64,000 nt of DNA, from positions 20,606,629-20,670,628 of the forward strand of contig NC_081391.1 in NCBI RefSeq assembly GCF_030684315.1. Reading direction: 5' to 3'. The position numbers and the translations under genes are program-made. Positions 1 to 60,761 of the stretch are shown here, in pieces. A model generated the notes under the pieces. That model was not told the origin of the DNA. It did not search any database and saw nothing but the letters and a program-made list of their open reading frames with translations. The stretch's first letter is position 1. The number at the start of each line of letters is the position of its first letter. The stretch is from Stegostoma tigrinum (Eukaryota).

Positions 1-201
1 CTCAGCTCCTCCTCCACATCCCCATCTCCTTTGTTCATTGGTGCCTGGGTGGATGGGCTATCCCTGATTGGCTGCCAGTATAATTGGTGACACCATTCCC
101 TGGTCGAATGCAAGATATCTCAGCAGTACAAATGCCAGAGGTTGTGGGTGTGAGGTTTAATTTGAGATTAGTCTAGGTTATAGTGAGTTGGAATAGTGAG
201 G
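1..201 (+). promoter_or_regulatory. Promoter / 5' UTR of copy 1
   Basis: Inverted CCAAT boxes (ATTGG) at 37, 67 and 83. The TATA position reads TACAAA (127) rather than TATAAA. Homologous to the other seven promoters. Confidence 0.7.
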
Positions 202-2423
202 ATGTCCTCCCAAGTGTGTCAGAACTACCACAAGGACTGTGAGGATGCTGTTAACAAGCAGATCAACCTGGAGCTCTATTCCTCCTATGTTTACCTCTCC
301 ATGGTGAGCCTGGTGCTGCATTCTGAAATTTATTTGGGCTGTGTTCTGTTACACTTCAATTGATGCCATTTTGTTAGGAATTGGGAGCTGGTTGTTAGTT
401 GTGTCGTTCATGCTTTTAGTGAGGAATGATGTTGAAGTAACTGTTGGTTACTGCACCTGACCTGCATTAAGACCTGATGTACAAAGCCCTTAACTGGGCT
501 CTTGTCTACTCCTGAGCTAGGAAGCCTGGGTTCAAGTTCTGCCTGTTCCTCAAAAACAATACTTTCCGATCCACTCGTTTGGGAGTTTTATCTGGCCCTA
601 ATTCAACTAAGGTCATATAACATAGTGGCAACCAAGTTGAAATTCCTAGACAAACCCATTTAGTCAACAAGTAACTGGTGAAATGTTGGGGATTCCCATG
701 GGCTTGTTAAATCTGTTTGAAAGTTGCTCCTTTTATGTCTATTTACATAGAATGTGCTTCACTTCCCCCAAAGAGCTTTAATGCACCAAGCTGCTTTCTA
801 AATCCCCCAAACCCAGTGAGATCCTGTGCCTGAGCTGTTCAGCAGCCTCTTGCACTGACTTTAAAGTTCCTGGCCACATTTTAATGGTTGAGCAAAGTAT
901 TAAATCTGCAGGCTAATGGGCAGATGGTCCTCATCTTATAATAGTTTCAGTTATCTGAATACACAGATTTAAGCTGCTATCTTGACCTGAATGAGATTCA
1001 GAAATTGTAGAAGTGAAATTGAACCATCCCTATCTTTTGGCTGCTTTTTGTCTATATACCTGGAGGAAGTTTCAGATTTCTTTCTGTTTTCTGGTTCTTA
1101 TTGATTTTAAAGAACAGTCTCTAACAAGCAAAAAAAATCCAAATCTAATTATTAAATAAACATGCTGTCATTGGTTTTTCTCCTTTCCAATAGTTCTCTC
1201 ATTTTGACCGGGATGATGTTGCCCTGCGTAACTTTGCTGAGTTCTTCAAGGAGCAGTCCCATGAGGAACGGGAACACGCTGAGAAACTGATGGCATTCCA
1301 GAATAAACGTGGAGGTCGTGTCCTCCTGCAGGACATCAAGGTTGGTGTATCCTCCTACATTGTAATGACCTGAACTAGATATGGATTTGAAGCTTGAATT
1401 CTGCTGGGGTAATGTTAAATGGCCCACACTATTCCTAGATACCTTTTTTCAATCTCATTGCTTTGCACTCCCCCTTCATTTTTCACTGAAACATCTGTCT
1501 CTTCCCTCCCTCCAGAAGCCAGAGCAGGATGAGTGGGGCAATGGTTTGGAGGCAGTGCAGAGAGCTCTGCAGATGGAGAAGGATGTGAACCAGAGTCTGC
1601 TGGATCTGCACAAACTCTCCTCTGATTGCGTGGACCCTCATGTGAGTCAAAAATGCTTAGCTGTGGTCTGAAGTCAGACAGACAGCACAGAAATGGACCC
1701 TTCAGTACATGCTGCATGTAAGCCCAAACTAAGCTAGTCCCACCTGCCTGTACCTGGCCCACTTCACTACCAACTGCCCCTATTCATTGTAGTTTTACAA
1801 TGTATAAAACGACTTGGTTGCTGTTCCTTCCACATGCAAACCACTCATCAAAAAGATGCTTATGTCCTTTATTTCTGGCTCCTTAAATTGCCACCTAATC
1901 CTAGAGAAAAGACACTTGCCATTTAACCCTATCTATACTCATGATCTTGTGACCCCTCAACCACCTATGCTCCAGTTGGAAAAACGTTCCAGCCTTTCTT
2001 AACTCCACCTTCCTTCTATACCAGACAACATCCCAGTAAATCTCTCCTGAGCCCCCTGCAGCTCACTGTCTCTCTGGGTGACTGGAACTGCACACAGTAT
2101 TACAAAAGGTGATTCACCAGTGCTTTGTCTTCCATCAACACCACATTATTTTCTCATTGGTTTTTCTCTCTCTATTAAACCATCTCGATACCACTAAATC
2201 TCCATTTCCAAAGGATGCGAATCTCCAAATGTTTCGGGAGAAATTCACTTGTATTTTTTTATTCTAGCTGTGTGACTTCCTGGAGAGGCACTACTTGGAT
2301 GAGCAAGTGAAGATGGTCAAGAAGCTGGGAGATCACATCACCAACCTGAAGAGACTGGGAGCCCCTGACAATGGCATGGGAGAGTACCTGTTTGACAGGC
2401 TCACCCTGGGGGAGAGTGACTGA
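202..2423 (+). CDS. Ferritin copy 1 (heavy chain B-like / middle subunit), 176 aa, 4 exons
   Basis: Exons 202-303, 1194-1340, 1516-1641, 2268-2423 with GT-AG phase-0 introns. Translates [34 protein letters not shown] / [31 protein letters not shown]...QDIK / [13 protein letters not shown]...DPH / [57 protein letters not shown] at 2543-2548. Confidence 0.95.
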
Positions 2424-3595
2424 ACTGACTGCAGGGAGCAAGCTGCTTGTGTTTATTACTGTGAAATGTGTAACTGAGGTATAGGGAGTGTGGTTTGTGA
2501 TGTGCATCGTGTGACACCTGGTTCTATTGTCAAATGTGCAATAATAAATCTGCTCCATATTAGACTGGATTCTTTCTTTCTTTCTCTGGGTGGTCTCCAT
2601 TTATTGCTTTCCAATCTGGACTGCTGACTTGCCAGAATGCTTTGCCGAGTGATCGATGCTGTGTAGTTAATCTGAAGCCTGTAACGTGCAATGATGGCCA
2701 ACATAAGAAGATGGTGTAACTGCCTGGTTTGTGCCCCTTAGCAAGTGTTGTTACTAATCCCCTCCCTACACAGTACGCTGACCTTAATCCTCCTTGGCCA
2801 GATGCTGCTGATCTTGGATGGCAGTCCTCGATTGGGACGGACCCAGCAAGGAAGAGCCCTGTTGCCACGAGTGACTAATTTCTCTCGGGTGGGGAATGTG
2901 TGGGGTTTTTTTTATATTTTAAAACTCTCCTCAAACACAAACTAACTCCTTTTATGAACTGGCTGGAGCCATTTTTGGATGTAGAGATGTGTTCGTGTTC
3001 CCCCTACCTCTGGGTGCTGCTCTTAGCTTCTCCCTGGGGCTGTCTTGCCCCTTGCCTTGTGTGGGGCTTGGTTCTGTTCTGTTCTGTTCTGATATTCTGC
3101 CCCACTATGAATCCTCTCAAAAGGGGGCAGTAGTTGCAGGAAATCATCCATTTCAGCAAAGCCTTCAGAGTATCGAAAAGGGGGGGGGGGTGGGGTGTTT
3201 GTTTTTCCTGGTCTACACAAGTTAACTTTTTTGTTTAAACCCACAGTCATGTTCCATTGACACTGAAACACAAACTAAGAAGCACCTTCATCAAAAAAAA
3301 CCCTCGAGTCTGTTGCATCCGTATGCTCAAACGGAATTGTTCTGGCAATACTATTAGGTGGCTGTGGGTCATCTTGATTTGCAATTTCAACAGCAAGCTT
3401 CAATCAGCTGATCTTTAGATGTAGGAGTTTAGTCAAGATACTGCAAATGCATAGTGTTGCAGTCCTCTCACCGAGGCATATAAATATTTTTGGAGGTGCT
3501 AAAAGCAAAGTCCTCATGCCTAAAGGACAATTCTCCTCACAAGTGGACAGTTTTCCATTTTCCATTTTCCACTTCCTCGTCGAAAGGGACAATTG

Positions 3596-5973
3596 ATAGA
3601 TATAGAACAGTAGAGCACAGAACAGGCCCTCCAGCCCACAATGTTGTGCCGACCATTGATGCTCACGTATGCACCCTCAAATTTCTGTGACCGTATGCAT
3701 GTCCAGCAGTCTCTTAAATGACCCCAATGACCTTGCTTCCACAACTGCTGCTGGCAACGCATTCCATGCTCTCACAACTCTCTGTGTAAAGAACCCGCCT
3801 CTGACATCCCCTCTATACTTTCCACCGACCAGCTTAAAACTATGACCCCTCGTGCTAACCATTTCTGCCCTGGGAAATAGTCTGTGGCTATCAACTCTAT
3901 CTATGCCTCTCATTATCTTGTATACCTCAATTAGGTCCCCTCTCCTCCTCCTTTTCTCCAATGAAAAGAGACCGAGCTCAGTCAACCTCTCTTCATAAGA
4001 TAAGCCCTCCAGTCCAGGCAGCATCCTGGTAAACCTCCTCTGAACCCTCTCCAAAGCATCCACATCTTTCCTATAATACGGCGCCCAGAACTGGATGCAG
4101 TATTCCAAGTGCGGTCTAACCAAAGTTTTATAGAGCTGCAACAAGATCTCACGACTCTTAAACTCAATCCCCCTGTTAATGAAAGCCAAAACACCATATG
4201 CTTTCTTAACAACCCTGTCCACTTGGGTGGCCATTTTAAAGGATCTATGTATCTGCACACCAAGATCCCTCTGCTCCTCCACACTGCCAAGAATCCTATC
4301 CTTAATCCTGTACTCAGCTTTCAAATTCGACCTTCCAAAATGCATCACCTCGCATTTATCCAGGTTGAACTCCATCTGCCACCTCTCAGCCCATCTCTGC
4401 ATCCTGTCAATGTCCCGCTGCAGCCTACAACAGCCGTCTATACTGTAAATGACACCTCCGACCTTTGTGTCATCTGCAAACTTGCTGACCCATCCTTCAA
4501 TCCCCTCATCCAAGTCATTAATAAAAATTACAAACAGTAGAGGCCCAAGGACAGAGCCCTGTGGAACCCCACTCACCACTGACTTCCAGGCAGAATATTT
4601 TCCTTCTACTACCACTCGCTGTCTTCTGTTGGCCAGCCAATTCTGTATCCAAGCAGCTAAGTTCCCTTGTATCCCATTCCTCTTGACCTTCTGAATGAGC
4701 CTACCATGGGGAACCTTATCAAATGCCTTACTGAAGTCCATATACACCACATCCACAGCTCGACCCTCATCAACTTTTCTAGTCACATCCTCAAAGAACT
4801 CAATAAGGTTTGTGAGGCATGACCTACCCCTCACAAAGCCATGTTGACTGTATTTGATCAAGCCATGCTCTTCCATATGGTCATAAATCCTATCCCTCAG
4901 AATTCTTTCTAACACCTTGCAGACAACAGACGTGAGACTTACTGGTCTGTAATTGCCGGGGATTTCCCTATTTCCTTTCTTGAAGAGAGGAATTACATTT
5001 GCCTCTCTCCAGTCCTCAGGTACGACTCCAGTGAAGAGCGAGGATGCAAAGATCTTCGCAAGTGGCGAAGCAATTACATTTCTCGCTTCCCAAAGCAGCC
5101 GAGGACAAATCTGGTCCGGGCCTGGCGACTTGTCAATTTTAATGTTTGACAGAATTTTCAGCACATCAGCTTCCTCTATCTCTATCCATTCCAGCATGCA
5201 CACCTGCTCTTCAAAGGTTTCATTCACTACAAACTTTGTTTGTTTCGTAAAGACAGAAGCAAAAAACTCATTTAGGGCTTCCCCTACCTCCTCAGACTCC
5301 ACACACAAGTTCCCTATGCTATCCCTGATCGGCCCTACTCTTTCTTTGACCATTCTCTTATTCCTCACATAAGTGTAAAATGCCTTTGTGTTTTCCCGGA
5401 TTCCTTCTGCCAAGCCTTTCTCGTGCCCCCTCCTGGCTCTCCTCAGACCATTTTTGAGCTCTTTCCTCGCCTGCCTGTAATCCTCTAGAGCTGAGCTTGA
5501 CCCTAGCTTCCTCCACCTTATGGAAGCTACCTTCTTCCTTTTGACGAGAAGCTCCACCGCTCTCGTCATCCAAGGTTCCTTTATCTTACCCCTTCTTGCC
5601 TGTCTCAGAGGGACATATTTACTCATCACTCACAACAACTGTTCCTTAAACAGTCTCCACATGTCTATAGTTCCCTTACCATGGAACAATTGCTCCCAGT
5701 CCATGCTTCCTAACTCATGTCTAATCGCGTCATAGTTTCCTCTTCCCCAATTAAATATCCTCCCATTTTGCCTAATCCTCTCCTTCTCCATAGCTATGTA
5801 GAATCTGAGGCAGTTATGGTCACTATCACCAAAATGCTCTCCCACCACAAGATCTGATACCTGCCCCGGCTCGTTTCCGAGCACCAAGTCTAGAATGGCC
5901 TCTCCCCTCGTCGGCCTGTCAACGTACTGCGTTAGGAAACCCTCCTGAACACACCTTACAAAAACTGCTCCAT
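3596..5973 (-). mobile_element. Young 5'-truncated CR1 LINE (end of APE endonuclease, RT domain, 3' UTR)
   Basis: ORF2 motifs NYRPVSLTS, DFSKAFDKVPH, GVPQGSVLGP, FADD, LVRPHLEYC. One in-frame TGA (5630-5632) separates ORFs 5630-5887 and 3677-5629. The 3' tail ends in TTCTATATCTATC. Confidence 0.95.
3677..5629 (-). CDS. CR1 ORF2 reverse transcriptase, uninterrupted 650-codon segment of a 5'-truncated element (probably not expressed)
   Basis: ORF track translation shows the non-LTR RT motifs (QHGF, DFSKAFD, PQGSVLGP, FADD). Confidence 0.7.
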   Translation of the reverse strand: MMSKYVPLRQARRGKIKEPWMTRAVELLVKRKKVASIRWRKLGSSSALEDYRQARKELKNGLRRARRGHEKGLAEGIRENTKAFYTYVRNKRMVKERVGPIRDSIGNLCVESEEVGEALNEFFASVFTKQTKFVVNETFEEQVCMLEWIEIEEADVLKILSNIKIDKSPGPDQICPRLLWEARNVIASPLAKIFASSLFTGVVPEDWREANVIPLFKKGNREIPGNYRPVSLTSVVCKVLERILRDRIYDHMEEHGLIKYSQHGFVRGRSCLTNLIEFFEDVTRKVDEGRAVDVVYMDFSKAFDKVPHGRLIQKVKRNGIQGNLAAWIQNWLANRRQRVVVEGKYSAWKSVVSGVPQGSVLGPLLFVIFINDLDEGIEGWVSKFADDTKVGGVIYSIDGCCRLQRDIDRMQRWAERWQMEFNLDKCEVMHFGRSNLKAEYRIKDRILGSVEEQRDLGVQIHRSFKMATQVDRVVKKAYGVLAFINRGIEFKSREILLQLYKTLVRPHLEYCIQFWAPYYRKDVDALERVQRRFTRMLPGLEGLSYEERLTELGLFSLEKRRRRGDLIEVYKIMRGIDRVDSHRLFPRAEMVSTRGHSFKLVGGKYRGDVRGGFFTQRVVRAWNALPAAVVEARSLGSFKRLLDMHTVTEI

Positions 5974-6649
5974 TTACGATTTATTTTTCTGCAGAGCCAG
6001 TGACCAGAGGCTTTTGAAATCACCAGGCATGGAGCTGGATGAACACAGCAGGTCAAGCAGCATCTTAGGAGCACAAAAGTGTTTTTGTTCCCATTATCTC
6101 TGATACAATTTTAACCAGAGGTCTCTGATGTGGGTGACGTTGGGATAGTAAGTCAAACCAAATCAGCTTCCCTATGTCATGATATATAAAACTAAAACAT
6201 TCTACCACCCTTGTTGCCCAGATGTTATGTCTTAAAGCCTGGTTAGAAGTAAATCAGGCACCAAATCTAAGGCTTAAGCAAGATACTTCATTAATATTGT
6301 AATAGCCGAGCAAAGCTAAGGACAGTGATTTAATGTCTCTGATTTAAACCAATCTTGAGTCCTAACCTATTCTTTCATGAACAGAAACAGTTAAGTTGAT
6401 CAACTGGTCAGTTAACTTCGGCAGTTTTAAAAGCTTGGTGCAAAACCTTCATGTAATCTTGACTAATGAATCATTCGCCAGATGTACCTTGCTTGAATTC
6501 TGCAGCCAATGCAAAAAGATTCTGTTGGAGACTTTTACTACGTGTCTGATAGACTGGGGCTCTTCTTCTCAGAGCTTCCAATAATTTGATAACTGGGTGT
6601 AAACTAGAAAGTAACTAAAGCTCCACCCTCTAGCTTTCACTGGCCACTA

Positions 6650-8055
6650 ACAGATACCTGGATCATGTACAACCATGAGTGAGGAACGAGAGGACTGGAG
6701 AGTGGCTAACGTTTGCCTTTATTAGTATAAAGGCTGTAAGGAGGAGCCTGACAAATATAGATGCGTTGGTTTGGTGCTAGTGATGGAGAGGTTGTTGGAG
6801 GGGTTTGAGAGAGGTTTTATGTGCATTTGAAGATGCAAGAAGAGATTGTGTATGGTCGGCAAAGCTTTGTGTGTGAGATACCATGTCTCTCAAACTTGAT
6901 GGTCCTTTTTAAGGACATGACCAAAGAGAGAGATGAGGGTAGGGTGGTATATATTGTCTACATGACGTTTGTGAAGCATTTGACATGGTTGCCTGTGATA
7001 GACTGATTAGTAAAGTTACATGTCAAGGAGAGCTTGCCAATTGGTTACAAACTTTGTTTGACGGTAAGACTGAGAGCGGGTGGTGGTAAAGAAATGTTTT
7101 CATACTGGATGCCTGTGATCAGTGATGTTCCATAGGGCTCGGTGCTGGGTTCACTGTTGATTGTCATTTATTTAAAACAATTCGGATTAGAATTTAAGAA
7201 GCATGGTCAGCAAGTTTGCAGGTGATTGCAAAATTGGTGGTATATTACATAGTGAAGAAGGTTGCCCAAGACTGCAAAGGGATCTCGATCACTTGGACTG
7301 GTGGAGTTTAATTTAAACAAATGTGAGGTGTTGCATTATGGTCAGACAAACAAGGGCAGAACCTATCCTGTCAATGATAGATAGTGTCCTGGGAAATGTT
7401 GCTGGCGAGAGAGGCCCCAGTTTCAGGTACACAGTTCATTGAAAGCAGCACCACATGTAGACAGGGTGGTAAAGACAGCATTTAGTACAAGCACATTCAT
7501 TCCTCAGACCAGTGAGTGTACGAGTTGGGAAGCCATGATGTGATTCGAGAGGGCGTTGATACGACTAGTTTTGGCATACTCTGTCCGGTTCTGGTCACCG
7601 TGTTATAGGAAGGATATTATTAAATTGGAAAGGGGTCTAGAGAAGCTGTGACTTCTTTCACAGGAGTGTAGGAGGTTGAGGGGTGGCCTAATAGACATTA
7701 ATAAAATCCTGTAGGACATAGATAAAGTGAATAGCACAGGTCCTTTCCCGACAAGGGGGTTGGAGGGCGAGTTCAACACCAGACAACATATTCTTAAGTG
7801 AGAGGAGAAAGATTTAAAAGGGGTGACCTTTTCATACAGAGAGTGGTTCGCATGTGGAATGAACTGCCAGAAAATTGTAGATCCATGTACAGTTACAAAA
7901 TTTAATAGACATTTGGACAAGTACGTCAATAGAAAAGTTTGAGGGATTTGGGCTAAGAGCAGGCAAATGGGGCCAGTTTAGTTTTGTGAAACTTGATCAG
8001 CATGGACGAGTTAGACCGAAGGGTCTGTTTCTGAGCTGTACGACTCCATGACGCT
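6650..8055 (+). mobile_element. Decayed CR1 LINE 3' part
   Basis: Degenerate RT motifs (CLSNL...F, DEGRVV...VY, KFAGD) and a CR1-type 3' UTR (gaccgaagggtctgtttctg). Confidence 0.85.
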
Positions 8056-10899: not shown

Positions 10900-11123
10900 A
10901 ATCTCTGATTGGCTCTCAAGCTCAGTCCCTTCCCCCAGCCCCTTTAGACTCTCCTTTGTTCATTGGTGCCTAGATTGATGGCGATTCCTCAGTGGCTGTC
11001 AGAGATTGTCAATCATCATTGGTGATGTCATTCCCTGTTGAGTGCAGCATGTTCCCAGAAGTATAAATACAAGAGCTCATGGCCTGAAAGCTCAGTTTTG
11101 GAGTGGTCTTGGTTATAGTGAAG
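10900..11123 (+). promoter_or_regulatory. Promoter of copy 2
   Basis: ATTGG at 10908, 10962 and 11018; TGATGTCA 11023; GAGTGCA (reverse TGCACTC) 11040; TATAAA 11062. Confidence 0.75.
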
Positions 11124-13457
<2,334 letters not shown>

Positions 13458-17384: not shown

Positions 17385-17611
17385 TCTCTGGCTCCCAGTC
17401 CCACCTCCACAGCCACTTTGGACTCTCCTTTATTCATTGGTGACTAGATTGATGGAGATTCCTCATTGGCTATCAGGGATTGTCAGTCATCGTGGCTGTT
17501 TTCAATCCCTGGTTGGGTGAAGGATGGCCCCAGGAGTATAAACACAAGAGCTTGTGGGAGAGAGGCTCAGTTTTAGAGTTGTCTTGGTGATAGTGAGCAG
17601 GAATAGTGAAG
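17385..17611 (+). promoter_or_regulatory. Promoter of copy 3
   Basis: Two ATTGG boxes and TATAAA at 17537; same architecture as the other copies. Confidence 0.65.
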
Positions 17612-17964
17612 ATGGCCTCCCAAGTGTGTCAGAACTACCACAAGGACTGTGAGGATGCTGTTAACAAGCAGATCAACCTGGAGCTCTATTCCTCCTATGT
17701 TTATCTCTCCATGATGAGTGTGGTGATCTTTGCTGTTTTCTGAAATGTTGTGATTTCAATGGATTGAAGTTCTCTTGACGCTGTTTCTTGGGATGGGGTG
17801 TAAGGGCAAGTCTTTATGGAGTGTTTCTAGAGTGAAATACAGGGTAATAGTAAATAAACTGTACCTGGCAGCAGCTGTCTTCTGTTGAGGCATAATGGAA
17901 AAAAACCACTTGTATATCATCTGGATCTCCCGCCCCCCCCCTCCCAATTTGCCCCTAATTGGGG

Positions 17965-18200
17965 TGATACGGTGACTCAGGGGTTAGCATTGTTGTCTCT
18001 CAGACCCAGGTGCCTGAGTTTGATTCTGAGTTTGGTGTCTGTGTATTTTTTGTATATTACTCCCATACCTGCCTTAATGTCTGTGGATTTCCTCCTGCTC
18101 TCCAAAGATGTTCAGATGAGGTGGATTGTCCATGCAACATGCAGGGTTATAGGGTGGGAGATGGGTCTGGGTGGGATGGTCTATGTTCTAACTTTCTCTA
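17965..18200 (+). mobile_element. tRNA-derived SINE in intron 1 of copy 3
   Basis: cggtgactcaggggttagca...gagtttgattc, with the SINE body ctcctgctctccaaagatg. Confidence 0.65.
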
Positions 18201-18464
18201 TTGGGATTAGAAACTTCTCAGTGGGGTGCTGAAGTGAAATGTTGGCAGATTGCTGTTACCTTATTCCTTCTGTCTAACTCCACTCTGTTCTCAGTTCTGA
18301 CCAATGCTGGCTTTAAAAGCACAAAAGGAATCCACCTCCACTATATTGGAATATCTGAAAGTGCTTTGTGGAACAAATTGCTTTCTGTTGGGTTAATATC
18401 CAATTATGCCTGAGTTTCAGACCCTAATTTGTCTGTAGTATGGTCTGTATGATGATGCTGTAAT

Positions 18465-18827
18465 CCAGTGACTTTCAGTCACACTGATTTTAAACTTACG
18501 CAGACATGTTCCCAATGACTTTCAGTCATACTGATTTTAAACTGACGCAGACATGTTCCCAGTGACTTTCAGTCACACTGATTTTAAACTGACGCAGACA
18601 TGTTCCCAGTGACTTTCAGTCACACTGATTTTAAACTTACGCAGACATGTTCCCAGTGACTTTCAGTCACACTGATTTTAAACTGACGCAGACATGTTCC
18701 CAGTGACTTTCAGTCACACTGATTTTAAACTTACGCAGACATGTTCCCAGTGACTTTCAGTCACACTGATTTTAAACTTACGCAGACATGTTCCCAGTGA
18801 CTTTCAGTCACACTGATTTTAAACTTA
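18465..18827. repeat. 47-bp minisatellite, about 7.7 copies
   Basis: Unit CAGTGACTTTCAGTCACACTGATTTTAAACT(T/G)ACGCAGACATGTTCC starts at 18466, 18513, 18560, 18607, 18654, 18701, 18748 and 18795. Confidence 0.97.
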
Positions 18828-19638
18828 TCAGGGCCATGCAAAGAAGCTCCTATTTGCTAACTTTCAATTTGCTTGAATGGACAGATAAACGAACACCAAA
18901 GTGATGGCGTCTAGGAGCTTTTGCAAGTGCATATTCTAGGCACGTGGCATAATCCCAGTCTAGATTTGGACTTGCAATGAAGGGTAGGAATGAGTGTCAA
19001 TGTTGTTTGACAGTTAACTTTTTGTATTTAGATGAATTTGCTACGTGGGGGTAAATACAATCTACAAATACATACAGGCTCATCACTTCAATTCTCTTCC
19101 CACAGTCCTTCTACTTTGACCGGGATGACGTTGCCCTGCGTCACTTTGCTCAGTTCTTCAAGGAGCAGTCCCATGAGGAACGGGAACATGCTGAGAAACT
19201 GATGGCATTCCAGAATAAACGTGGAGGCCGAGTCCTCCTGCAGGACATCAAGGTTGGGCTCAATAGAATGAGTGGCCTTTCTGCCTCGGTTCCTTTTGCT
19301 TTCCTCTTATCCTTTTAAGGATTTTGAAATAGGTTTAACTTGGTGATCTTAGCTTTTTTTCCCCTAGCCCTGGACATTAATATGCCTCATTTTTCCTTTT
19401 TAAAATCCTCACATGGTTTTATTTTAATCCATGTGTTAATGAACTTCCCTCCTTCCAGAAGCCAGAGCAGGATGAGTAGGGCAATGGTCTGGAGGCAATG
19501 CAGAGAGCTCTGCAGATGGAGAAGGATGTGAACCAGAGTCTGCTGGATCTGCACAAACTCGCCTCTGGCCACACGGACCCTCATGTGAGTTCTTGTTTGA
19601 GATCAGACAGTAGTCCTTTAAATTGAATTCCTGTTTGA

Positions 19639-19965
<327 letters not shown>

Positions 19966-20637
19966 TGAACTGACTACAGGGAGCAAACTGCTGTTGTGTG
20001 CAACATGGAGACAATATCCTTGCGTATCAGATCTGGATAGTATTGTGATTTTAATCACACAATGTAAATAAACTCAATATTGGACAAGGTTTGGCCTCCC
20101 TGTTTGACTTCATTTGTACGCCATAACATGAGCATTGGATCTGTGCACCAACATTGAGGCACAAGTTAGTGTAACAGCATATCTCCCAGATCTTGACATT
20201 CAATGTCAATTCCCAGTTTGAATCCATTCCCTTGGATGTGAACAGTTATTGTTGCTCACTAGCCTTGGCTTCACAAACTGCGCTGTATGGCATAAAAGGG
20301 ACACAGCACAAACAGTTACAGAATCTCATGGAAGACTGCCAAGCCTAGAATAAGCAGGTTGGCCTCGTGTGGATACAAATTGTTAACAATGCTGATTCAC
20401 CACTTACTCTGTTTATTTTAAAGCATACTTTCCATGCTCCTTCCCAGGTCCCCTTAGAAAGTTAACTTCTAGTCACTAAATAGGTCTGTTTTTTTTTTCT
20501 TGTTCCCCCCCCCCCCCGCCTCCACTACCCCCCCACCCCACCAATCTGACTTGTTCAGAGTCCCAGCTGCTAGAATGCAATCCCTCGTTGACCAGGAAGA
20601 AATTCTACCGCCCTCATGAAAGAAACTTAACTCCCTC

Positions 20638-23250: not shown

Positions 23251-23258
23251 ATTCGCAG

Positions 23259-23647: not shown

Positions 23648-23691
<44 letters not shown>

Positions 23692-25794: not shown

Positions 25795-26026
25795 AATCTC
25801 TGAATGGCTCTGGGTCTCAGCTCCACCCCACGGCCCCTTCTCCTTTGTTCATTGGTGCCTGGATTCATGGAGATTCCTGATTGGCTGTCAGAGATTGTCA
25901 ATTGTCATTGATGATGTCATTCTCTGATTGAGTGCAGATTGTTCCCAGGAGTATAAATGCAAGACCTTATGAGAAAAAGGGTCTGTTCCAGAGTTGTCTA
26001 GCTAATACTGAATAGGAAAAGTGAAG
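25795..26026 (+). promoter_or_regulatory. Promoter of copy 4
   Basis: ATTGG boxes, TGATGTCA, GAGTGCA 25930, TATAAA 25952. Confidence 0.75.
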
Positions 26027-27722
<1,696 letters not shown>

Positions 27723-29547: not shown

Positions 29548-32281
<2,734 letters not shown>

Positions 32282-34859
32282 CTGAACTGACTGCAAGGAG
32301 CGAGCTTGTGCACAATCTGCAGGGACTGTGGCTTCAAATACATGCTGCATTGTAATTTAGTAAATGACTAAACTGTTCATGGACTAATTTTTGCCTCACT
32401 TGTTTAATTGCACAACTTGATCAATCTTCCAAGTATGGAGTAAGATTGCTCTTCAATCCAACAGTTCAGGGCCCACTTATAAAATTCTGTGAAAATAGAT
32501 TGTCTTAGCAGCACATCCTGCAAGTCTGAGATTGTTATGAGAAAATGGACTTGGGTTGTTTCAAAACTCCATGATGTCTAGCTCGTGGGAAAATCTATGG
32601 CCACAACTGTTGAGAGCAGTTTTCCCATAAATTTCAGACTTTGTTTTGCCCTAGTCCATGTTGGTTTTCATGTGGGGTGTGGTTTAGCTGCTTGGGTGCC
32701 CATGAGGAGGACAAATACCACTGTTCCTTAGCCATGTCTACACTTAAATTCTCTTGCTCCCATCCCTCTGTTCGAACCAAAAGCAAAGTGCTATCGGCGT
32801 CACTGGGGAAGTGGTGTTTTTTTTAAACTCCAGCATTGGCCTGTTTCCTTGTAGGATCAAGCCTAGTCCATGTCTGTCACTTGACCATTTTTAAAAAGCC
32901 TACACCACAGTCCACCAACGAACTAGGCAAGAGATTGATGTCTCCAACAGTGCACCGTGGGAGGTTCCCTAATGTCAAAGATACTGACTTTGACTTTGGC
33001 TTAAAATCAAGCCATGATTGCTGCCACTTGATTTAAGGAGGAATCAATATTTTGTTCCCCCCCTCTCCCTCCCCAGTTCGTAATGCAACATTCTCCAAGT
33101 CGGGCCTCCTTCCACAATTGGAGGGAGGATTAGTCTATAGGTGGCTGAGGGCAGGAATCCCTCAGGATAAGGGAATGTGTAACTGAAAGATTGGGATAGG
33201 TGGCTCCACTTTTAAACCTGCTTTTTCAATCAGTTTCACGAGAGGTAACTGCTCACCGAACAATTTGTATGGGTGAGTTACCCAGTTGTAGTCTTTTTAA
33301 TTGAATTGGCAATGAAACTTCCGACATCCTTTATCTTTATTTGTTCCATTAATGCAATTGGAGGGCTTCAAATGTTAATGTTTCTGCTGCAAGCGTCCTG
33401 TGTCTTAAGAGTTTTGAGGAATGCGACAAGTTTAATGAGATTTCAGTCTTCGTTCAATGTTAATGCCTTTGCATCTTCCACCCCCCTGACCCCTCCCAAA
33501 AAAAAGGGTTTCAGTTACCTTTTACTTTTGCTATTGAATCGGCATTCGTTAAATTACATCACTTCAACTGGCGTTGAATTGTCACCATCCCTGACTCTCG
33601 CAGGTACTGATACTGAGTTCAAATCATCCCTGTGTAAACATCTATCGTTTGTTTCTGTTGCTATGGAGCAGTGTCCAGACAGTCCTGTACTTGTAAGAAG
33701 CTGCATGATATCGTGTGACTATCCTGCTGTCGCTCTCATGTTTTCTCTCTCAGACGGTTTAGTCAGTCTGTTGTGTGAAATAGACAGTTACATTAAGGCA
33801 CACAAACCAGACTAAATGTGTTCATTGTGTAAACTACAAATTGAATCATGGGAGCATCCCACAAACATTGACACAGAGAATGCTGTTAGCCTGCAAACCA
33901 GTGTAGATACACAAACTGAAGTACAGTGAGAGTCCATATGAGAGGCTGCCTATCTACATTCCAAGAAATAGAATTTTAAATGGTCCTGAAAGGACAGTTC
34001 AAAGAACTCCTTGAAGAAAATATATCTTAAAAACATTAAAAAATTTGGTTTCTAATTTGAAAAAAAAATTACCTGTGTCTAAATGTCAGCCATTTATCAT
34101 TACCTATTTCCAAATTGATGGGATAATTTTAAAACAATACCCTCATGCTGCTGTGAGATCGGAATCCCCTCTGACTGCGCTTAATGCAATACGGTCAGAT
34201 GAAATACCAAACCTTGTGGATGTGTATGCTGTGAATAAAAGCCAAGCCTTAACATAAAACACTGAAATATGTGCTATTTGAGGGGTTAATTTCAGACATT
34301 CCAATGTCAGGATACAACTGATGATATTAAAAAGGCTGGAAGTTGGGATATGATGATAACAATGACACAGAATAACGACTATCATGATATTTGAAGCGTG
34401 GAAGAGGCCATTGAAGGACCAAGTGGTGCGAGACAATGCCATTCGTAGCACTGGATAGTGGGAAATAACAGCATTGTGTTGTTCTGTCTGGATCAAAGAG
34501 GCTGCTCAGCATTGACCATTCAGCAGAATGGCCTCAGTAACTGTGCTGATGTTATTCCCGTGAAGATCATCACAAGAGAAAAAACTGGCACTGCAGATGG
34601 AAGATGGGACAGCATTGGTCGGCCTGACTGAAGCCTGCATTCAACAGAGGATGGAGCCGTGGTGCTGGGGATTTTGGGGATTGTCAGTGTTCCAGCTGAA
34701 TTGGAGTGATCACAGTCTGGGAGGTGTCTGCAGCAGATGAAGGGTCCAAATCAGTCAAGCTGGTTCGTGGACTCATCGTTCTCACTGGAAACTGAGTGCG
34801 GGGTTGTATGTCATCAGCCGAATCTGAGGGGTATGAGGGCTGAGAACTTTTTACGAGAT

Positions 34860-35745
34860 TTTTTATTATCTTGGGGGACATTAGTGTGACTAGCTGATAT
34901 TTTTTGCCACTCCCTTTTTGCAGTTGAGAAGCTAGGGGTGACCTGCCACCCATGTGCTGTAGGTAGACCCATAATGCCATTAGGGAGGAAACTCCAGGCG
35001 TTTGACGAGAGACACTGAAGGAATGGTGAGGTATTTCCAAGTCAGGGTAATGAGTGGCTTGGAGGGGAACTGGCAGCTGGTGGCAGCTGGTGGCGTTCCC
35101 ATGGACTTGCTGCCCTCGTCCTTCCAAATCTAAGTTGCCATGGGTTCCAAAGGATCTTTGGTAAACTTTTGCAGTGCATCTTCTTGAGAGTACGCACTGC
35201 TGCTGTTGAGTGTTATTGGTGGAAGGATTGGATATTTGTGGAGTGGCACTAATCAAATGGGCTGCTTTGCCCTGGATAACACCAAGCTTCTTGAGTGTTG
35301 TTGGGGCTGCACACATCCAGGCGAGTGGGGTGTATTCCATCACACCCCTGACTTGTAGATGGTGACAGGCTTTGGGGACTCAGGAGGTGGGTTACTCACC
35401 ACAGCATTCCTAGCCTCTGACCTGCTCTGCTAAACATTGTGTTTAAGTGGTGAGTCCAGCCAAGTTTCTGGTCAATGATAACTCCCAGGATGTCGACAGC
35501 AGGGTATTCAGTGACTGTATGGACATTGAATGTCAAGGCACAGTGGTTAGATTTTATTACTGATGGTCATTGCCTGGCATTTGTGTGGTGTAAACTTTCC
35601 TCGCCACTTCTCAACCCAAGACTGGATATGGTCCAGCTCTTGTTGCATTTACATGTGAAATGTTGCAGTATCTGAGGAGTGGTGAACGGTGCTGAACGTT
35701 ATGCAATCACCGGCAAACAGCCTCGCTTCTGACCTTATGACGGAG
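34860..35745 (-). mobile_element. CR1/L2-group LINE 3' fragment
   Basis: MEYTPLAWMCAAPTTLKKLGVIQGKAAHLI; same family as 43155-44060 and 44070-44675. Confidence 0.8.
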
Positions 35746-36511: not shown

Positions 36512-36740
36512 AATCTCTGATTGGCCCTGGGTCTCAGCCCTATCCCCACAGTGCCCTCTCTTTTTTTCATTGATGCCTGCATTGATAGATTCCTGATTGG
36601 CTATCAGGGACTATCAATCATCATTGGTGACCTTGTTCCTTGTTTCAGTGCCGGATGTACCCAGGAGTATAAATACAAGAGCTTGTGGGTGTGATACAGT
36701 TCTAGAGTTGGCCTAGTGGTAGTGAGCAGGAGTAGTGAAG
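36512..36740 (+). promoter_or_regulatory. Promoter of copy 6
   Basis: CTGATTGG twice, CATTGG, TATAAA 36668. Confidence 0.65.
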
Positions 36741-38985
<2,245 letters not shown>

Positions 38986-41900
38986 CTGAACTGACTGCAG
39001 GGAGCAGGTTTGTTGACACCTGTCTGAACAGGAGACCTGTAGAGACTTCTCGTTTTGTAGAAGCAGCTCATTGTCCTGCACCAAGTGTAAATAAACTGAT
39101 CACATGGGACCATGTCTTGCCTCCCTTTCTTGGTTAATCCTTGCTGTGAGCTGTAGCTTGATCCTGTTTGATTCTGCTCTTGCTGATGAGAACACTCTCT
39201 CCCTCCTAGGCTGTGGGTTTCACTGTCTGGCCCAGACAATTGCCTAGAACAAGTCATCTTTGTGGTGAGCTTCTGCCTTGAACCCCAGGGCCATGGTCCA
39301 GAGACTTTCCCCTTCCTCTCAAAGGAATTGGCATACTTTGGCCCAGTGTATTTCCACCCAGATAAGTGGCTTGAACCAGAACTTGGTGGTGGTATTCCTG
39401 TTACTGACTTCTCTTCAGTGGAAGTGGTCATAGATTTGAATGGTCCAAGGCAGGGAGCCTCAGTGAGTTTCTGCTGTGCGCAACACTCAGCACCATTTGG
39501 TGCAATGATAACAGCAGTGGCAGTGACTTTGGTTTCAGGGTCATATACCAAATTCTATTCAAAGTTACTTCCAAATCAGTGAAGCCTCACAGAGCCCTAA
39601 TGACTGTACATTGACAATCATGCTTACAAGAAGACTGACCAAAATCTCTTAAATTGACTTTTTATTTACCAGGTCTGGCAGTCAGTCAGCAGAATTCAAG
39701 AGTAATGGGGTTATCCCTGATAGGTCTGTTTTCAATTCTGTGTAAAAACCCCACCCTTTTCTCGAACAGAAACACCTTTGCAGGTGCTAAGGGCTCCAAC
39801 AGTGGCTCAGTGAGTAGCAGGATCACAGTGTGCTCAATGGCTATCGTAGAACATCGTCAAATTCTGAGGCTGCAACACTTCAGCGATTGCCATGCTTTTT
39901 CCAGGGTCAGCATGCAGTTACCCACTTTGAGCAAAGCTGATTTTATTTTTAAGCCTAGTTTGGGAAATGGAGTTTTTGCTGTCACCACCTGCCACAAAGA
40001 CATTGTGCTCTAAATTTGTTGCTAATTCCTGATTTAGAGCCCAGTCCTAACACGTCAGGGTGATGTATCCCTGGGAAACTGTGCCTCAATCCACTGGGAC
40101 TTGGGTGAATTTTTCTACAACATAGCTCAAAGGCTGGCATCAAGTTCCGCTTCTACCATTCTGTCTCTGGGCCAAAATGGTTCTCTAACTTAAAACAGTA
40201 GCGATTGCTCCTATCAGTTTGTATGTTACTGAATTATACAGTGGCTTTTTTAAAAATTCAAACCAATTTGTTGACTGACTTTTTCACATCTTAAACTATT
40301 TCCATTTGTTGAATGCATCTTCCTTGCCCCCTCTTTCCCCCCACACCACACCCCATGAATGGATATAAATGTTAATGGTGCAGCTGTAATTATCCAGTGT
40401 TTTCAGGAATTTGATAGAAAATGCAAAAGTGAACAAAATCTGTTTATCCGCTGTTAATGCCTTGCATATCTGAAAGAAATTTTCAGGCACCTTTTTCACG
40501 TTTGCTATTGAATCAATAATCATAAAAGACATTTCACACTTGGAGTTTAATTATCACCATTCCTGATCCTAACAGGTGTTGCTACTGAAGTTAAATAATT
40601 TTACCCTTGGGGGGGATAAAAAATCTATCATGTGTTCCTGTTATAATACAGCAGAGTTTTCAGGCAGTCCTGTACTTGTAAGACAGCTGCACAATATCAC
40701 AATGTATGACTTTCCAGTATAAAAATATCTGCTTTGCTGTCAATCACACGCACGTTTGTCAGTCAGTTGTGTGGAATAGATATAGAAAGCAGACTAAATG
40801 TGTTTATAGGGTAAATCGCAGAGAGTGCCGTTAGCCTGCAAATCTGTGTAGATACACAAACTGAAGTACAGTGAGAGGCTGCTAATCTAAATTTCAAGAA
40901 ATGGAATTTTAACTGGTGCTGAAAAGACAACCCAAAGGATTCCTTGAAGAAAATATGCATTAAAAGCGCCAAAACGTGTGCTTTTTTTTCCCATTTAAAA
41001 AGGAATTACCTGTGTCCAGATGTCAGCCATTTCTATCATTTTCTACTTCCAAACTGTGAAATCGTTAAAGAAACATTCTGTTGTGAGACCGAAGTCCCTT
41101 CCATCTGGGTTTATGGAATAAAGTGCAATTAAATAATAAATCTTATGGATATGAATAGTGTGAATAAAAGCCAAGACTCAACACAAAACATGGAGAGGAA
41201 TGCTACATTTGAGCAGTAAATCTCAAACATTCCAACATCAGATCAGAACTGATGATGGTAAAAGGGCTGGAAGTTGGGATATGATCACAACAATACAATG
41301 GCACAGGATAACCAGCATCATGGCATCTAACTAAGGAAAGGAGTAGGTCATTGAAGAACCATGCGATGCCAGACAAATGCCATTCATAGCGCTGGATGGT
41401 GATAAAATAACATCATTGAGCTGGTCTGTCCAGATCAAAGAGACTGTTAAGCACTGACCATTCAGCAGAATGGCCTCAGTAAATGTGCTGATATCATTTC
41501 TGTGAAGATCATCATAAGAGAAAGAACTGGCATTGCAGATGGAAAGTGGGAAAGGATTGGTCAGCCTGACTCAAGCCTGTATTCAACCGAGGATGGAGCC
41601 GTGCTGTTGGGGATTTTGGGGATTGTTAGTGTTTGGGCCGAATTAGAGTGATCACAGTCTAGGAGGTGTCTGCAGCCAGGAGGAGAGTCCAGATCAGCCA
41701 AGCCGGTTTGTGAACCCATCGTTCTCACTGGAAAGACCAAACTGAGCGCAGGGTTGTACATCGTCAGCCATACCTGAGGGGTAATGGGTCTGAGAGGTTT
41801 TCACAATTTTTAATCTCTCGTGGGACGTTGATGTTGCTGACTGAGACAGTATTTATTAGCTACCCCTAGTTGCCCTTCAGAAGGTGGTGATCTGCATTCT

Positions 41901-43154
41901 TGATCCGTTGTAGTTGATGTTCTGTAGGTTGACGCACAATGCTGTTCGGGAGGGGATTGCAGGATTTTCACTCGGCGACACTGAAGGAACGGTACTATAT
42001 TTCCAGTCAGAATGGTGAGTGACTTGTCGGGGAATTTGCCAGGGTTGACGTTCCACGCATATCTGTTGGCTGTCCTAGTGGGTGTGCGTTTGGAAGGTGC
42101 TATCGAAACACTTTGGTGAATTCCTGCAGCGCATCCTCTGGAAGGTACACACGGCTGCTACTGAGCGTCATTCTACATTCCAAGGCCCGTTGTAAGGAGG
42201 GGAACAAGAACAGGAGCCGTTATGATATGTTTACCCCTCTTTGGGCCTGGATGCCCAAAGGGCTGCTCTCCTTAAAAGGGCAGTGACATACAACTAACTA
42301 AAGAGGGGGAAGGCCAACAAAAATATAGAAAATCATGATACAATACCAGCTAAAGACCACAAAAATGGAAAGTAAAATTTGGCTTGGAACACCATTGACA
42401 TTTTATTCGAGCTCCAGTTATTTCAATTAAGAATCAGTCTTACTTTATGCGTCAGCAGAACTGCTGATGTTTGGACAAAGTCCTTTGTATCACTGGACAC
42501 ACACTGCATCTCCACTTTGACCAGGACATGTGCCAAGCTCCAAATACATCTTCTGTTGGGGAGGTCAACTGTGCCCATTGGTGGGGTCTGTCCCAAAAGG
42601 ATTGTGCATGAAAGGTCATTGCTGGTTCCCAAAGTCAATCACAGGCCTCCCCCCCAAACATCTGGCCCATCTGAGCCAGAGTTTCATCCAAGGAGACACT
42701 TCTCATCACCTAATCCTGGGCTGAAGCCTTTTGAGGATGAAACCAGATGGAAACACCTGGGATATCAGAGAAGCAGTTGTAGTTAAAGGGGTCAATTTGC
42801 ACTGATGATGGAAAAGTTGCTTCCCTCGAGGTAACATTTTTTAATTACTTCATTCCTATACCACTGTAGATATTTTCTGAGCAACATATTGTGGAGACAT
42901 TGGAACCAGAACCCAGAGGTTTCAGATCTAGAGGAGTGGGTCCTACATATTCATTTACAAACAACCAGCTAGTTTGGGAGGTGTTGAGAATCCACCACTT
43001 TAAAAGCACTTATAGAGTCAAAGCTAATTGCCGGGTCACCAAACCTGAAACATTAACTCTGTTTTCTCCTCCGCAGATGCTGTCAGACCTGCTGAGCTTT
43101 TCCAGCAATTTTGCTTTTGTTCCTGATTCACAGCATCTGCAGTTCTTTAGGTTT

Positions 43155-44060: not shown

Positions 44061-44069
44061 TTTACTGCC

Positions 44070-47024: not shown

Positions 47025-47270
47025 CAAGAACAAAGAAAACTGGAGAAACTCACAGGCCTGGCAGCATCTGCGAGGAGAGAAAGAGAGTTAATGTTTCGGG
47101 TCCAGTGACCTTTGTCAGATATTCTATTCTGATGAAGGCTCTCTGGACTTGAAAGGTTAACTCCGTTTAACTCTTCACAGATGCTTCCAGATCTGCTGAG
47201 TTTCTCCAGCAATTTCTGTTTCTTTTTCTCAGATTTCCACCATCCACAGTTCTTAATTTTATTTTAGTGT
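47025..47270. repeat. Inverted pair of Penelope-type terminal repeats (imperfect palindrome)
   Basis: Arm ctggagaaactca...gcatctg...gagttaatgtttcgggtcc is the reverse complement of ggacttgaaaggttaactc...cagatgc...tgagtttctccag. A similar structure lies at 53575-53740. Confidence 0.7.
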
Positions 47271-47384
47271 TTATCACTAAGTTCAAACAAGAATGTTAAA
47301 TACTGAGGTACTTTCAGATTTGAAACAAGAACCCAAGAGCAGTAACACCATTGAGGATAAGGCCCTAAAACTGTTTCTATCACA

Positions 47385-47580
47385 AACCTCTGATTGGCTC
47401 TGGTCATATCCTTATTAATTGATGACTGAATGCATGATTCCTGATTGGTTGTCAGGAATCGTCAGTCATCATTGGTGATGTTATTCCCTGTTTCAGTGCA
47501 GGGTGTTCCCAGGAGTATAAATGCAGGAACAAGAGTCAGTTCTAGAGTAGTCTAGGTGATAGTGAGCAGGAATAGTGAAG
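47385..47580 (+). promoter_or_regulatory. Promoter of copy 7
   Basis: CTGATTGG twice, CATTGG, TATAAA 47516. Confidence 0.72.
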
Positions 47581-50914
<3,334 letters not shown>

Positions 50915-52699
50915 ACTGCCAGCAGGAAATGAATTTGTAATGTACTTGTGTAGCTAGGAAACTTGTAACTAGTGAGGCCAAGCTTGTCAAAACATTAAAT
51001 AAAGTGCCTATGGGCTAGATCCTCGTGGTCTGTTAATGTACCTGAAATCAGGCGTCTCATGTACCAGACCAGCCAAGATGTTGATGAGATTATCACTCCC
51101 ATGTCATTTTTGGCATGACACAGGACAAGATCTGGTCTTGTATGATCTTCATGCAATGCACTATAGAGTTTAGAGCTGCTCTAACAACAGTTAGAATTTA
51201 GTATGATATTTTTCTTGCCCATCTAAAGCTGATGTGGGGGTAGCAGGTGGGTCAAAGGAATATCAAGAATAAACTAAACTTTCTTGAATCTTTTCAAGGG
51301 CTCAGTCTTCAGGAGCAGGGCCTCTGGACTGAGGAAGGAACACTACCACAGGAGCCTCTATAAACAAATGACAGCCTCTTAAAAGTGGGACATCAAATCA
51401 AAGGGTATGACTCCATGTTAATCCCATAAACACTTTACAAACCCTGCTGGACCTACTTGGTTACTTTTAAAACATTTTCATTTTCTTTTTGAATCTCTAG
51501 CATCTAGGTTTCTACCTAGTTGACCTGCTCCTCAAAGGGGAGTGCTGGTTAAAACAGTAGCTTGTGGGAACTTAGTTCAATACATGGGTAGAAACACTGT
51601 TTCCAAACTCCTCTGTTCTAATGGAGCCCTTATTTACAATAGTTTAAACAATTGTTTTTTTAATCCAAAAGCAGATACCATGAGGAATTAACTTGCGTAG
51701 TTTTGCTCACTTAAAACTTACGCATATTCCCTTTTAACATTTTTCTGGTAACACTTGAGCAAAGTTGTAAATGACAAGTAGTTCTGGAGACCTGTGAGCT
51801 CCTCTTTATTGAACAAGCTCTTGGCAGTTCCTTGCAAACAGAAGGTTAATACAAAAGTATGCTTTTATTTTTGAAGTTGAAGAATAAATTAAAGCTGGTT
51901 CTATGAATCTGAGCTTTAAACCTTTCAGGCCTGATCCATCAGTTAATAAAACTCAAATGAAGCTGCTCCTTCATTAAACTTGTCAGCTTGTTGTTAAATT
52001 TGAAGGAAATACCCATTTCCAATCCTGTTTGTTCACTATACATCTACATCTACATCTCCTTCACGTTAATGGTTTAACCTTGTTGCCATGACCACAATTC
52101 TGAGGTTTGGTAGTTCATTTTTGGAACTTAGTTGAGGTCTGGTTGATACAAGAAAATTATTCGTCTGTCACTTGAATCACAATCTTTGAATCTCAGACGG
52201 AAAGAATGAGTTTATTTCCAAACCCAAACCATCCCTTCGCCCTGCTGGCAGATACTGAAGTCTTGTGGTTCCTGGGAAAAGGATTTGTCAGTAGTTATAC
52301 CAACAATCTGTAACCGCAGGCCTTCCAACAATGGATCTTGTGTCCTGTGTCCATCTGCATGGCTATTGAGTGACCATATTATGTCTATCCGCTTGGACAA
52401 AGCCCTTTATGAGGACTGAACATTCCCTGCATCTCAGCCTTTTCAATAAGGACAGGTTTTGGTGCCCGGTATAGCTTCTGTTCAGCTGGGTCAACTGTAC
52501 CCATTTAGTGGTATCTCTTCGCAAGAAGATTTTATCTATAGTGTCAGCAATGGTCCTGGGTGTGAATCTCAGACAGCCTCGTTTTTGTATCTGGACCAGC
52601 GTTTACTCCAAAGAAGCCACATGTTCACCTGTTCCAGGATTGAACCACTTCTCTAATAAACTGTGACATCAACGCTTGGGATCTTAGAGGATGCTAGGA

Positions 52700-53046
52700 T
52701 TCCTAACAGACCAGAAAGAGGTCATTCAGCCCATTGAGTCTGCACCAACCCTCCAAAGAGCACCACACCCAGACTAATCATTTGCCTCCCATCCCTGTCC
52801 CTGCAACTACACATTTTCCATGGTTAGCCCACTTGCCTGCACATCCCTGGACAGTAGGGGAAATTTGGCACAATCAACCCACCTCGCCTACAACATCTTT
52901 AGATTTAAGGAGGAAACTGTAACACTTGGAAGAGACCCATGCAGACATGGGGAGAATGTGTAAACTCCACGCAGACAGTCGCCTCATGCCAGGATCGAAC
53001 CCAGGTCCCTGGTGCTGTGAGGCAGCAGTGCTAGCCATTGTGACAC
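52700..53046 (-). mobile_element. tRNA-derived SINE
   Basis: Reverse strand caatggctagcactgctgcctcacagcaccagggacctgggttcgatcc (A box and B box GTTCGATCC) plus CR1-like tail. Confidence 0.8.
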
Positions 53047-53944
53047 AAAACAAGGCCAGAGGGAAAGACTAAAATTATTTTTAAATAGTGAGTTGTTACA
53101 ATTGAGAACGCACTGATAGGGCAAGGTAAGAGAAGCAGATGCCTCAATGATTTCAAAGAGAGATTTGGAGACATATAACGACAATGAAATGAATGGCAGC
53201 ACTATTGGGAAAATCAGAGGACTGGGACTAATTTGAAAGTTCTTTCAAAGAGCCAGCACAAACTTTCGGTACTAAATGGTCTCCATTTGTGTCTGAATCA
53301 AAGAGTTGGAAAATATTCGAGTCTAAACATTTCAAATAGATTCAAGTCACATCAGTCAAGTTGAAAGTCACCCTCTGAACAAATAACATTGACCACAGGA
53401 AAAGATGAGCTGCTCCACTGAGTGTGTTCTCAAATCTCTGCAGCCGAGACCAGTGTGTGGGTGAAATTAGATTCAGCCACATTAACTTGCTCTCACATTT
53501 CCATTTCTCTGTCCTGTGGTTGGTTTGCAAATTCCCTCAAGATGATCTGACTTGCTGAGGAAAAAAAAATAGCAAAATAACTGCGGATGCTGGAAATCAG
53601 AAACAAAATCAGAAATTGCTAGAAAAGCTCAGCAGGTCTGGCTGCATGTGTAGAACAGTTCTGAGGCAGGGTCACTGGGCCCAAACGTTAACTCTGGTTT
53701 CCCTTCACAACTGCTGCCAGACCTTCTGAGCTTTTCTCGACCTGCAAAAGGTACTGTATCAGCTTCACAGCTCCTCGTACGTATCAAACTTGACCAGGTT
53801 ATGAAAAGCTGCTTCAGCAACAGAGTAAGATATAGTTCCAGAGAATAAAACTTCAAGGGATTTTCAGAATTGAGGAATGTCAATGGAATCAAAAAACTAG
53901 TGACAACACCAAGACAATTCGGTCAAACGGGACACTATTTTCCA

Positions 53945-54164
53945 AATCTCTGATTGGCTCTGGGTCTCAGTCCATTCCCGACAGGCCCCTCTCCTGAGTT
54001 CACTGGTGCCTGAATTCATGGAGATTCCTGATTGGCTATCAGTGATTGTCAATCTTCATTGGTCACATCATTCCCTGGTTGAACGCAGGATGATACGAGG
54101 AATATAAATACAAGAGCTTGTGGTAGAGAAACTCAGTTCTAGAGTTGTTGAGGTGATAGTGAAG
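53945..54164 (+). promoter_or_regulatory. Promoter of copy 8
   Basis: ATTGG at 53953, 54031 and 54058; TATAAA 54103. Confidence 0.72.

Positions 54165-59197: not shown

Positions 59198-60761
<1,564 letters not shown>

Follow-up and report, generated by a model that had tools for sequence, protein, structure and literature searches.

A tandem array of ferritin genes with short predicted leaders and no detected iron-responsive element in Stegostoma tigrinum

A 64,000-nucleotide stretch of contig NC_081391.1 of Stegostoma tigrinum (RefSeq assembly GCF_030684315.1, positions 20,606,629 to 20,670,628 of the forward strand, referred to here as the window) contains eight full-length four-exon ferritin-like genes, all on the + strand and arranged head-to-tail, and in none of them do we find an iron-responsive element (IRE). 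Iron regulatory proteins (IRPs) bind the 5' IRE of ferritin mRNA and block initiation (PMC11719527). We think it probable that these are tandem IRE-less genes for ferroxidase-bearing ferritins, the six intact members of which give short unstructured leaders that IRP1 and IRP2 likely cannot repress, with output set by a CCAAT-TATA-initiator promoter and by gene dosage.

Organization of the array and the predicted proteins

The genes were located using the four exons of copy 1 as queries against the 64-kb window. Neighbouring gene starts are separated by 3.7–10.9 kb. Six of the eight copies are intact, with GT-AG introns and open frames of 173–176 aa (531 nt in three of them), and the other two, copies 3 and 6, are pseudogenes. 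All eight have the layout of four exons and three introns, with damaged splice sites in copies 3 and 6. A ninth copy is present as exon 4 only; exons 1–3 were searched for within the window and not found. Judged by gene structure and residue positions, the genes of the array are taken to be ferritin genes. They are listed below from the TATA-like box, with the distance from that box to the ATG in parentheses.

127..2423, + strand: copy 1, intact, 176 aa; exons 202-303, 1194-1340, 1516-1641 and 2268-2423; variant TATA TACAAATG at 127; ATG 202 (75 nt)
11062..13457, + strand: copy 2, intact; exons 11124-11225, 12159-12305, 12493-12618 and 13302-13457; ATG 11124 (62 nt)
17537..19968, + strand: copy 3, pseudogene; AT as intron-1 donor, exon 3 with an in-frame stop, exon 4 with its acceptor out of register; ATG 17612 (75 nt)
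25952..27722, + strand: copy 4, intact, 175 aa; degenerate initiator, nucleation position 54 is Lys; ATG 26027 (75 nt)
29704..32281, + strand: copy 5, intact, 175 aa; AATAAA/ATTAAA not found within 400 nt of the stop; ATG 29766 (62 nt)
36668..38985, + strand: copy 6, pseudogene; raised dN/dS (0.48–0.95), exon 2 with its acceptor 2 nt out of register and an in-frame stop; ATG 36741 (73 nt)
47516..50914, + strand: copy 7, intact; initiator-like motif brought closer to TATA by a 10-nt deletion; ATG 47581 (65 nt)
54103..56526, + strand: copy 8, intact, 173 aa; open frame, GT-AG introns; ATG 54165 (62 nt)
60606..60761, + strand: ninth copy, orphan exon 4 only; acceptor and 3' flank kept

All eight copies keep Glu24, Glu58, Glu59, His62, Glu104 and Gln138 (salmon numbering), the six positions given for the ferroxidase centre in a paper on Atlantic salmon (PMC4117605). 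Nucleation residue Glu61 is kept in all eight and Glu54 in seven, with Lys in copy 4, and position 57 is His or Gln. In the same paper the M chain is recognized by a ferroxidase centre together with nucleation Glu54 and Glu61, and the residues found here would accordingly make the products M-type cytosolic proteins. No signal or mitochondrial leader peptide was found in the 173–176 aa frames, which begin at the ferritin core, and there is no ATG in the predicted leaders.

Promoters, predicted leaders and the search for an iron-responsive element

When the 5' regions are aligned, some 170 nt preceding TATA form a common block in which ATTGG (inverted CCAAT) boxes recur, two to five of them within 260 nt in each promoter; next come the TATA-like box and then TCAGTT, which we take to be an initiator-type motif. 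Copy 2 provides an example:

10900..11123, + strand: promoter and leader of copy 2; ATTGG at TATA-154, -100 and -44; TATA at 11062; A of TCAGTT at TATA+32; predicted 30-nt leader

The window has 47 TA(T/C)AAA hexamers, and the six that are then followed by (T/A)CAGTT are all ferritin promoters. The A of this motif lies at TATA+32 in four copies, at +30 in copy 6 and at +22 in copy 7, and copies 1 and 4 carry variant sequence in the initiator column. The 21 pairings of copies 2–8 give an identity of 0.80 over TATA-100..-50 and of 0.73 over -50..+32; the interior of intron 1 gives 0.50–0.53, and random 100-mers score 0.51. The promoters are CpG-poor, with an observed/expected ratio of 0.05–0.28 (0.21 for the window). 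Beside the proximal ATTGG, at about TATA-57 to -45, most copies have a conserved TGTCAATCA-like motif, presumably resembling a PBX/MEIS-type site, which is deleted in copy 1.

Transcription would start at about TATA+30 to +32, as predicted from TATA-initiator spacing, and the conserved CCAAT-TATA-initiator anatomy of the promoters supports this position. The predicted leaders are then about 30 nt long in copies 2, 5 and 8 and about 43 nt in the rest, a difference of one 13-nt unit. The initial annotation had placed TATA boxes 62–75 nt from each ATG and expected 5' untranslated regions of about 30–45 nt; all eight boxes were located, and the predicted leader lengths agree. Folding of the leaders is no better than that of shuffled sequences in any of the eight copies (z from -1.28 to +1.43), no ATG occurs beyond TATA+17 in the eight leaders, and an A is present at -3 of every start codon. 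No strong splice acceptor was found in the leaders, where the best pyrimidine fraction downstream of TATA is 0.65; for real acceptors it is 0.59–1.0 and mostly at least 0.76. The 13-nt unit lies between two ATAGTGA-like repeats; it is present in copies 1, 3, 4, 6 and 7 and missing from 2, 5 and 8.

Comparison with Rfam, which the initial annotation had proposed, gave no match at the gathering score over 64,000 bases and seven matches in the window at E≤10, none of them an IRE, and narrow rescans at copies 7 (161 nt), 2 (161 nt) and 3 (61 nt) gave four, four and one weak matches, likewise with no IRE; Rfam holds IRE models, and these searches were run without a real IRE as positive control. A pattern scan called for the loop, a C bulge six nt before it and a 5-bp stem in which one mismatch was tolerated. 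The canonical pattern has a single + strand match in the window, at 59287, 3' of all eight genes (1.7 expected from 30 shuffles), and the variant-loop pattern has 19 matches versus 17.2 expected from shuffles. None of the 119 CAGUG/CAGAG loops between the previous stop and each ATG has both stem and bulge, and eight have the stem with no bulge; the scan covered the entire intergenic DNA for copies 2–8 and, for copy 1, only 201 nt before the ATG (126 nt before TATA). The bodies of the eight genes have no match to the IRE pattern, and no CAGUG loop is present in any of the eight predicted leaders. Between TATA and ATG, canonical-type loops occur just twice, in both cases as CAGAG without an IRE stem: copy 1 has one at TATA+9, which precedes the predicted start, and copy 4 has the other at TATA+37. 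The canonical IRE, a CAGUGN loop on a 5-bp upper stem with a bulged C, is not found in these genes, and both kinds of scan bear out the earlier statement that none precedes the ATG.

The nearest approach to an IRE beside a gene is the following site:

11034..11050, + strand: closest IRE look-alike by a gene; GAGUGC loop, C bulge and one stem mismatch; TATA-22 of copy 2

GAGTGC or CAGTGC occurs at TATA-22 of copies 2, 4, 5 and 7, preceded by a C at six nt and with one or two stem mismatches, the resemblance being weaker in 4, 5 and 7. The copy 2 site is the sole variant-loop match beside a promoter and lies upstream of the predicted start. Neither these sites nor a UAGAGU loop in copy 5 (see below) is a canonical IRE. 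We regard the case for a fossil IRE at TATA-22 as weak, the geometry being wrong (the consensus fold is a 4-bp helix of -1.9 kcal/mol with an 8-nt loop). TAGTGA motifs in the leaders were also considered as eroded IRE loops, an idea that is unsupported: the stem does not rise above shuffles, and an Rfam trace is absent at E≤10. TATA-22 of copies 2, 4 and 5 (11040, 25930 and 29682) also contains, on the minus strand and within a weak palindrome, what we take to be a metal-response-element core, although three of eight copies may be no more than chance level.

If the predicted start is correct, loss of IRE/IRP control is the likely consequence. An unstructured leader of 30–43 nt without a hairpin would give IRPs nothing to bind, so that protein output would follow the mRNA level, and this level would in turn be set by the CCAAT/TATA promoter and the six copies. 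The uncoupling from iron-dependent translation put forward in the initial annotation is partly supported, through the promoter anatomy and the start that it predicts. An upstream exon bearing an IRE, which that annotation had named as a possible refutation, is excluded by the pattern scan for copies 2–8 within their own intergenic spans, and for copy 1 within 126 nt upstream of TATA only.

Divergence and exchange among the copies

For the 15 pairs of intact copies the mean synonymous divergence (dS) is 0.127 and the mean nonsynonymous divergence (dN) is 0.036, with dN/dS of about 0.28; by this comparison of coding sequences, the intact copies are under purifying selection. Pairs with copy 6 have dN/dS of 0.48–0.95. 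Pairs with copy 3 (copy 6 excepted) have 0.20–0.38, and these low values suggest that copy 3 either broke recently or was refreshed by exchange.

The exons are 92–96% identical among copies, with 4-fold sites differing at 95 of 869 pairwise positions. Beyond the splice sites identity drops to background over 20–30 nt, and blastn matches are confined to 2 of the 84 intron pairs. The copies are also mosaic: copy 1 resembles copy 8 over exon 2, intron 2 and exon 3 (89%, 462 nt) and copy 2 over exon 4 and its 3' flank (94%, 317 nt), and copy 6 resembles the orphan exon 4 and flank (84%, 469 nt). The GC content of third codon positions (GC3) is 0.65–0.69 in genes that lie in a region of 43% GC. We infer an old array that has been held uniform by short-tract, exon-limited gene conversion together with selection. 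Trees of the eight promoters and of the coding sequences contain no well-supported fork, and we claim no order of duplication.

A single promoter ancestor with mosaic exchange implies that the missing IRE is probably one ancestral event; the element was probably lost once, before or during the expansion, and duplication with short-tract gene conversion would then have carried that loss through the array and maintained its uniformity. The absence of an IRE from eight of eight copies is therefore not eight separate pieces of evidence. The initial annotation's claim for all eight ferritin copies holds for the absence itself, and is overstated in that there are six genes and two pseudogenes, with probably one loss.

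Several repeats and degenerate elements lie in and between the genes:

3677..5629, minus strand: 650-aa reverse transcriptase frame of the long interspersed element (LINE) type, between copies 1 and 2; presumably CR1-like
18465..18827: 47-bp tandem repeat within pseudogene copy 3 (intron 1); 7.7 copies, 97% matches
33509..35069 and 40481..42034: 1.6-kb intergenic segment that precedes both copy 6 and copy 7, the two versions being 71% identical
48191..49168: in intron 1 of copy 7, an example of the decayed pieces related to the 3677-5629 LINE that occur elsewhere
59200..60761 (region): degenerate element with a GIY-YIG-like frame, directly 5' of the orphan exon 4; presumably Penelope-like

Alternative explanations and relation to known ferritins

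Several observations weigh against IRE-independent output set by promoter and dosage. With two of eight copies broken and a ninth reduced to a fragment, dosage is not tightly held, and copy 5 is without a canonical poly(A) signal. The promoter pattern is imperfect: the TATA of copy 1 is the variant TACAAATG, copies 1 and 4 are without CAGTT, and the motif of copy 7 is too close to TATA. The TATA-22 look-alike of copies 2, 4, 5 and 7 would be transcribed if the start were upstream, and a non-canonical UAGAGU loop, with C bulge and one mismatch, occurs at TATA+37 of copy 5, where the bulge would fall at the cap. Moreover, a search extending 260 nt from each TATA revealed no antioxidant response element, and the GATA sites show no conservation from copy to copy; these results weaken both a stress role and a role in blood cells.

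The broken copies, the fragment and the retroelements between genes are what would be expected of a birth-and-death array of minor paralogues, in which the IRE decayed neutrally in a weakly or narrowly expressed duplicate and conversion rejuvenated the exons, with no adaptive bulk output. Since exon identity derives partly from exchange (the 95 of 869 4-fold differences and 2 of 84 intron matches given above), low divergence alone is no proof of use. There are also published parallels, in that IRE-less ferritins of sponges are often minor and divergent (PMC8395497) and the IRE-less isoform of a chiton is the lower-expressed one (PMC7850002). We nonetheless consider this explanation unlikely given the dN/dS of about 0.28 among intact copies and its higher value for pseudogene copy 6, the retention of promoter sequence far above intron background and of an intact ferroxidase centre in all copies, and the high GC3 within a 43% GC region. 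Persistence of IRP control seems to us very unlikely, whether it were exerted by a non-canonical IRE, by a non-coding exon lying far off beyond the window, or by the TATA-22 hairpin transcribed from a start farther upstream. GAGUGC or CAGUGC with a C six nt upstream does occur at the homologous place in four copies, and the scan of copy 1 spans only 126 nt upstream of TATA. However, the stem has one or two mismatches in copies 2, 4, 5 and 7 and fails in the other four, its consensus fold is not of IRE geometry, and the Rfam rescans over TATA-22 in copies 2 and 7 gave no IRE; furthermore, TATA-initiator spacing places the start downstream of it and the leaders are without a strong acceptor.

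It is also conceivable, but extremely improbable, that the array is partly an assembly artefact of collapsed or duplicated alleles and that its broken copies are sequencing errors. The lesions of copies 3 and 6 are, it is true, read from the assembled sequence. However, the introns differ in length and sequence among all copies, which are therefore not alleles. Copy 3 has three separate lesions and copy 6 two, the latter with a raised dN/dS as well. Four public data sets, all from one study, contain 67–77% of the sampled copy 2 words, although they may come from the same sample and so not be independent. No RNA set is among those listed as matching the region of copy 2.

A more elaborate proposal builds on codon 19 in exon 1, which is Lys in all eight copies and which we take to be the equivalent of human FTH1 Arg23. 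That residue is required for binding of NCOA4, and so for ferritinophagy (PMC6316710). These could then be lineage-wide vertebrate 'sink' ferritins, free of the IRE and, with Lys in place of Arg23, subject to less release; they would have been multiplied and held uniform through exon-limited conversion so as to fill one cell type before an iron load, a scheme we judge distinctly unlikely.

Returning to IRE-independent output set by promoter and dosage, its use would be a ferritin reserve, a pre-made buffer for iron and oxidants in a high-output tissue; our guess would be nucleated blood cells. Bulk production in a specialised cell, as the initial annotation had suggested, would fit a CpG-poor TATA promoter, strong start context and an unstructured leader. 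The types of protein and repeat point, as a guess, to a cartilaginous fish. In lantern shark, ferritin is, with haemoglobin, among the most abundant transcripts in eye and skin (10.1101/364992), and in dogfish it is among liver-specific proteins (PMC5568229); in neither passage is the ferritin specified.

Among described systems, the Atlantic salmon genes H1, H2 and M1–M3 have four exons and all carry a 5' IRE, with a CAGUGA loop and UGC bulge in M1–M3 (PMC4117605). The genes described here are like salmon M1–M3 in their four exons and three introns, 531-nt frame (three intact copies; M1 in salmon), ferroxidase positions and Glu54/Glu61, and unlike them in having no IRE, a predicted leader of 30–43 nt and a tandem array of at least nine. 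Hadal snailfish have 14 copies of fthl27, mostly tandem, which protect transfected cells from reactive oxygen species (ROS) and are read as dosage for ROS defence; this vertebrate expansion, apparently in another lineage, is a precedent for an antioxidant benefit (PMC10746142). Mammalian FTMT likewise combines a ferroxidase centre with absence of an IRE, and is transcriptionally controlled and tissue-restricted (PMC4496698, PMC7760355); it is a single intronless gene with a mitochondrial leader, whereas every copy here has three introns and no N-terminal extension. Mouse Fthl17 is also a multi-copy family, six clustered genes with pseudogenes and restricted expression, but without the ferroxidase activity whose centre is intact here (PMC7760355). 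IRE-less ferritin mRNAs that are read as constitutively translated are also known from invertebrates. Chiton isoform 2 arises by an alternative start of one gene and is a precedent for such translation (PMC7850002), and sponges have IRE-less ferritins that are mostly divergent proteins; in the same survey, which took in non-insect invertebrates, 47% of the ferritins had an IRE (PMC8395497).

IRE-less ferritins and tandem ferritin expansions have thus each been published, and their combination in intron-bearing vertebrate M-type genes did not appear in our searches. No intron-bearing, ferroxidase-intact, multi-copy, IRE-less vertebrate ferritin was found in the literature searched, in which coverage of fish and amphibians was partial, and absence from print is not established by this. 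The 2007 survey by Piccinelli and Samuelsson, a key one for IRE evolution, may already include IRE-less vertebrate ferritins.

The array would work in the manner of other IRE-less ferritins with constitutive translation, and its genes are built like those of M-type vertebrate ferritins. We view it as regulatory variation in a gene family that is well known; each of its two halves has parallels in print, and we do not see a new type of system in it. A 5' IRE is taken as standard for intron-bearing vertebrate ferritin genes, fish M chains included (PMC4117605), and in people a shift away from translational control causes disease when it affects FTL (hyperferritinaemia-cataract, PMC11719527). If our interpretation is correct, one vertebrate lineage would have shifted part of its ferritin output from translational control to control by transcription and dosage, and the array would offer a natural way of testing the function of the IRE.

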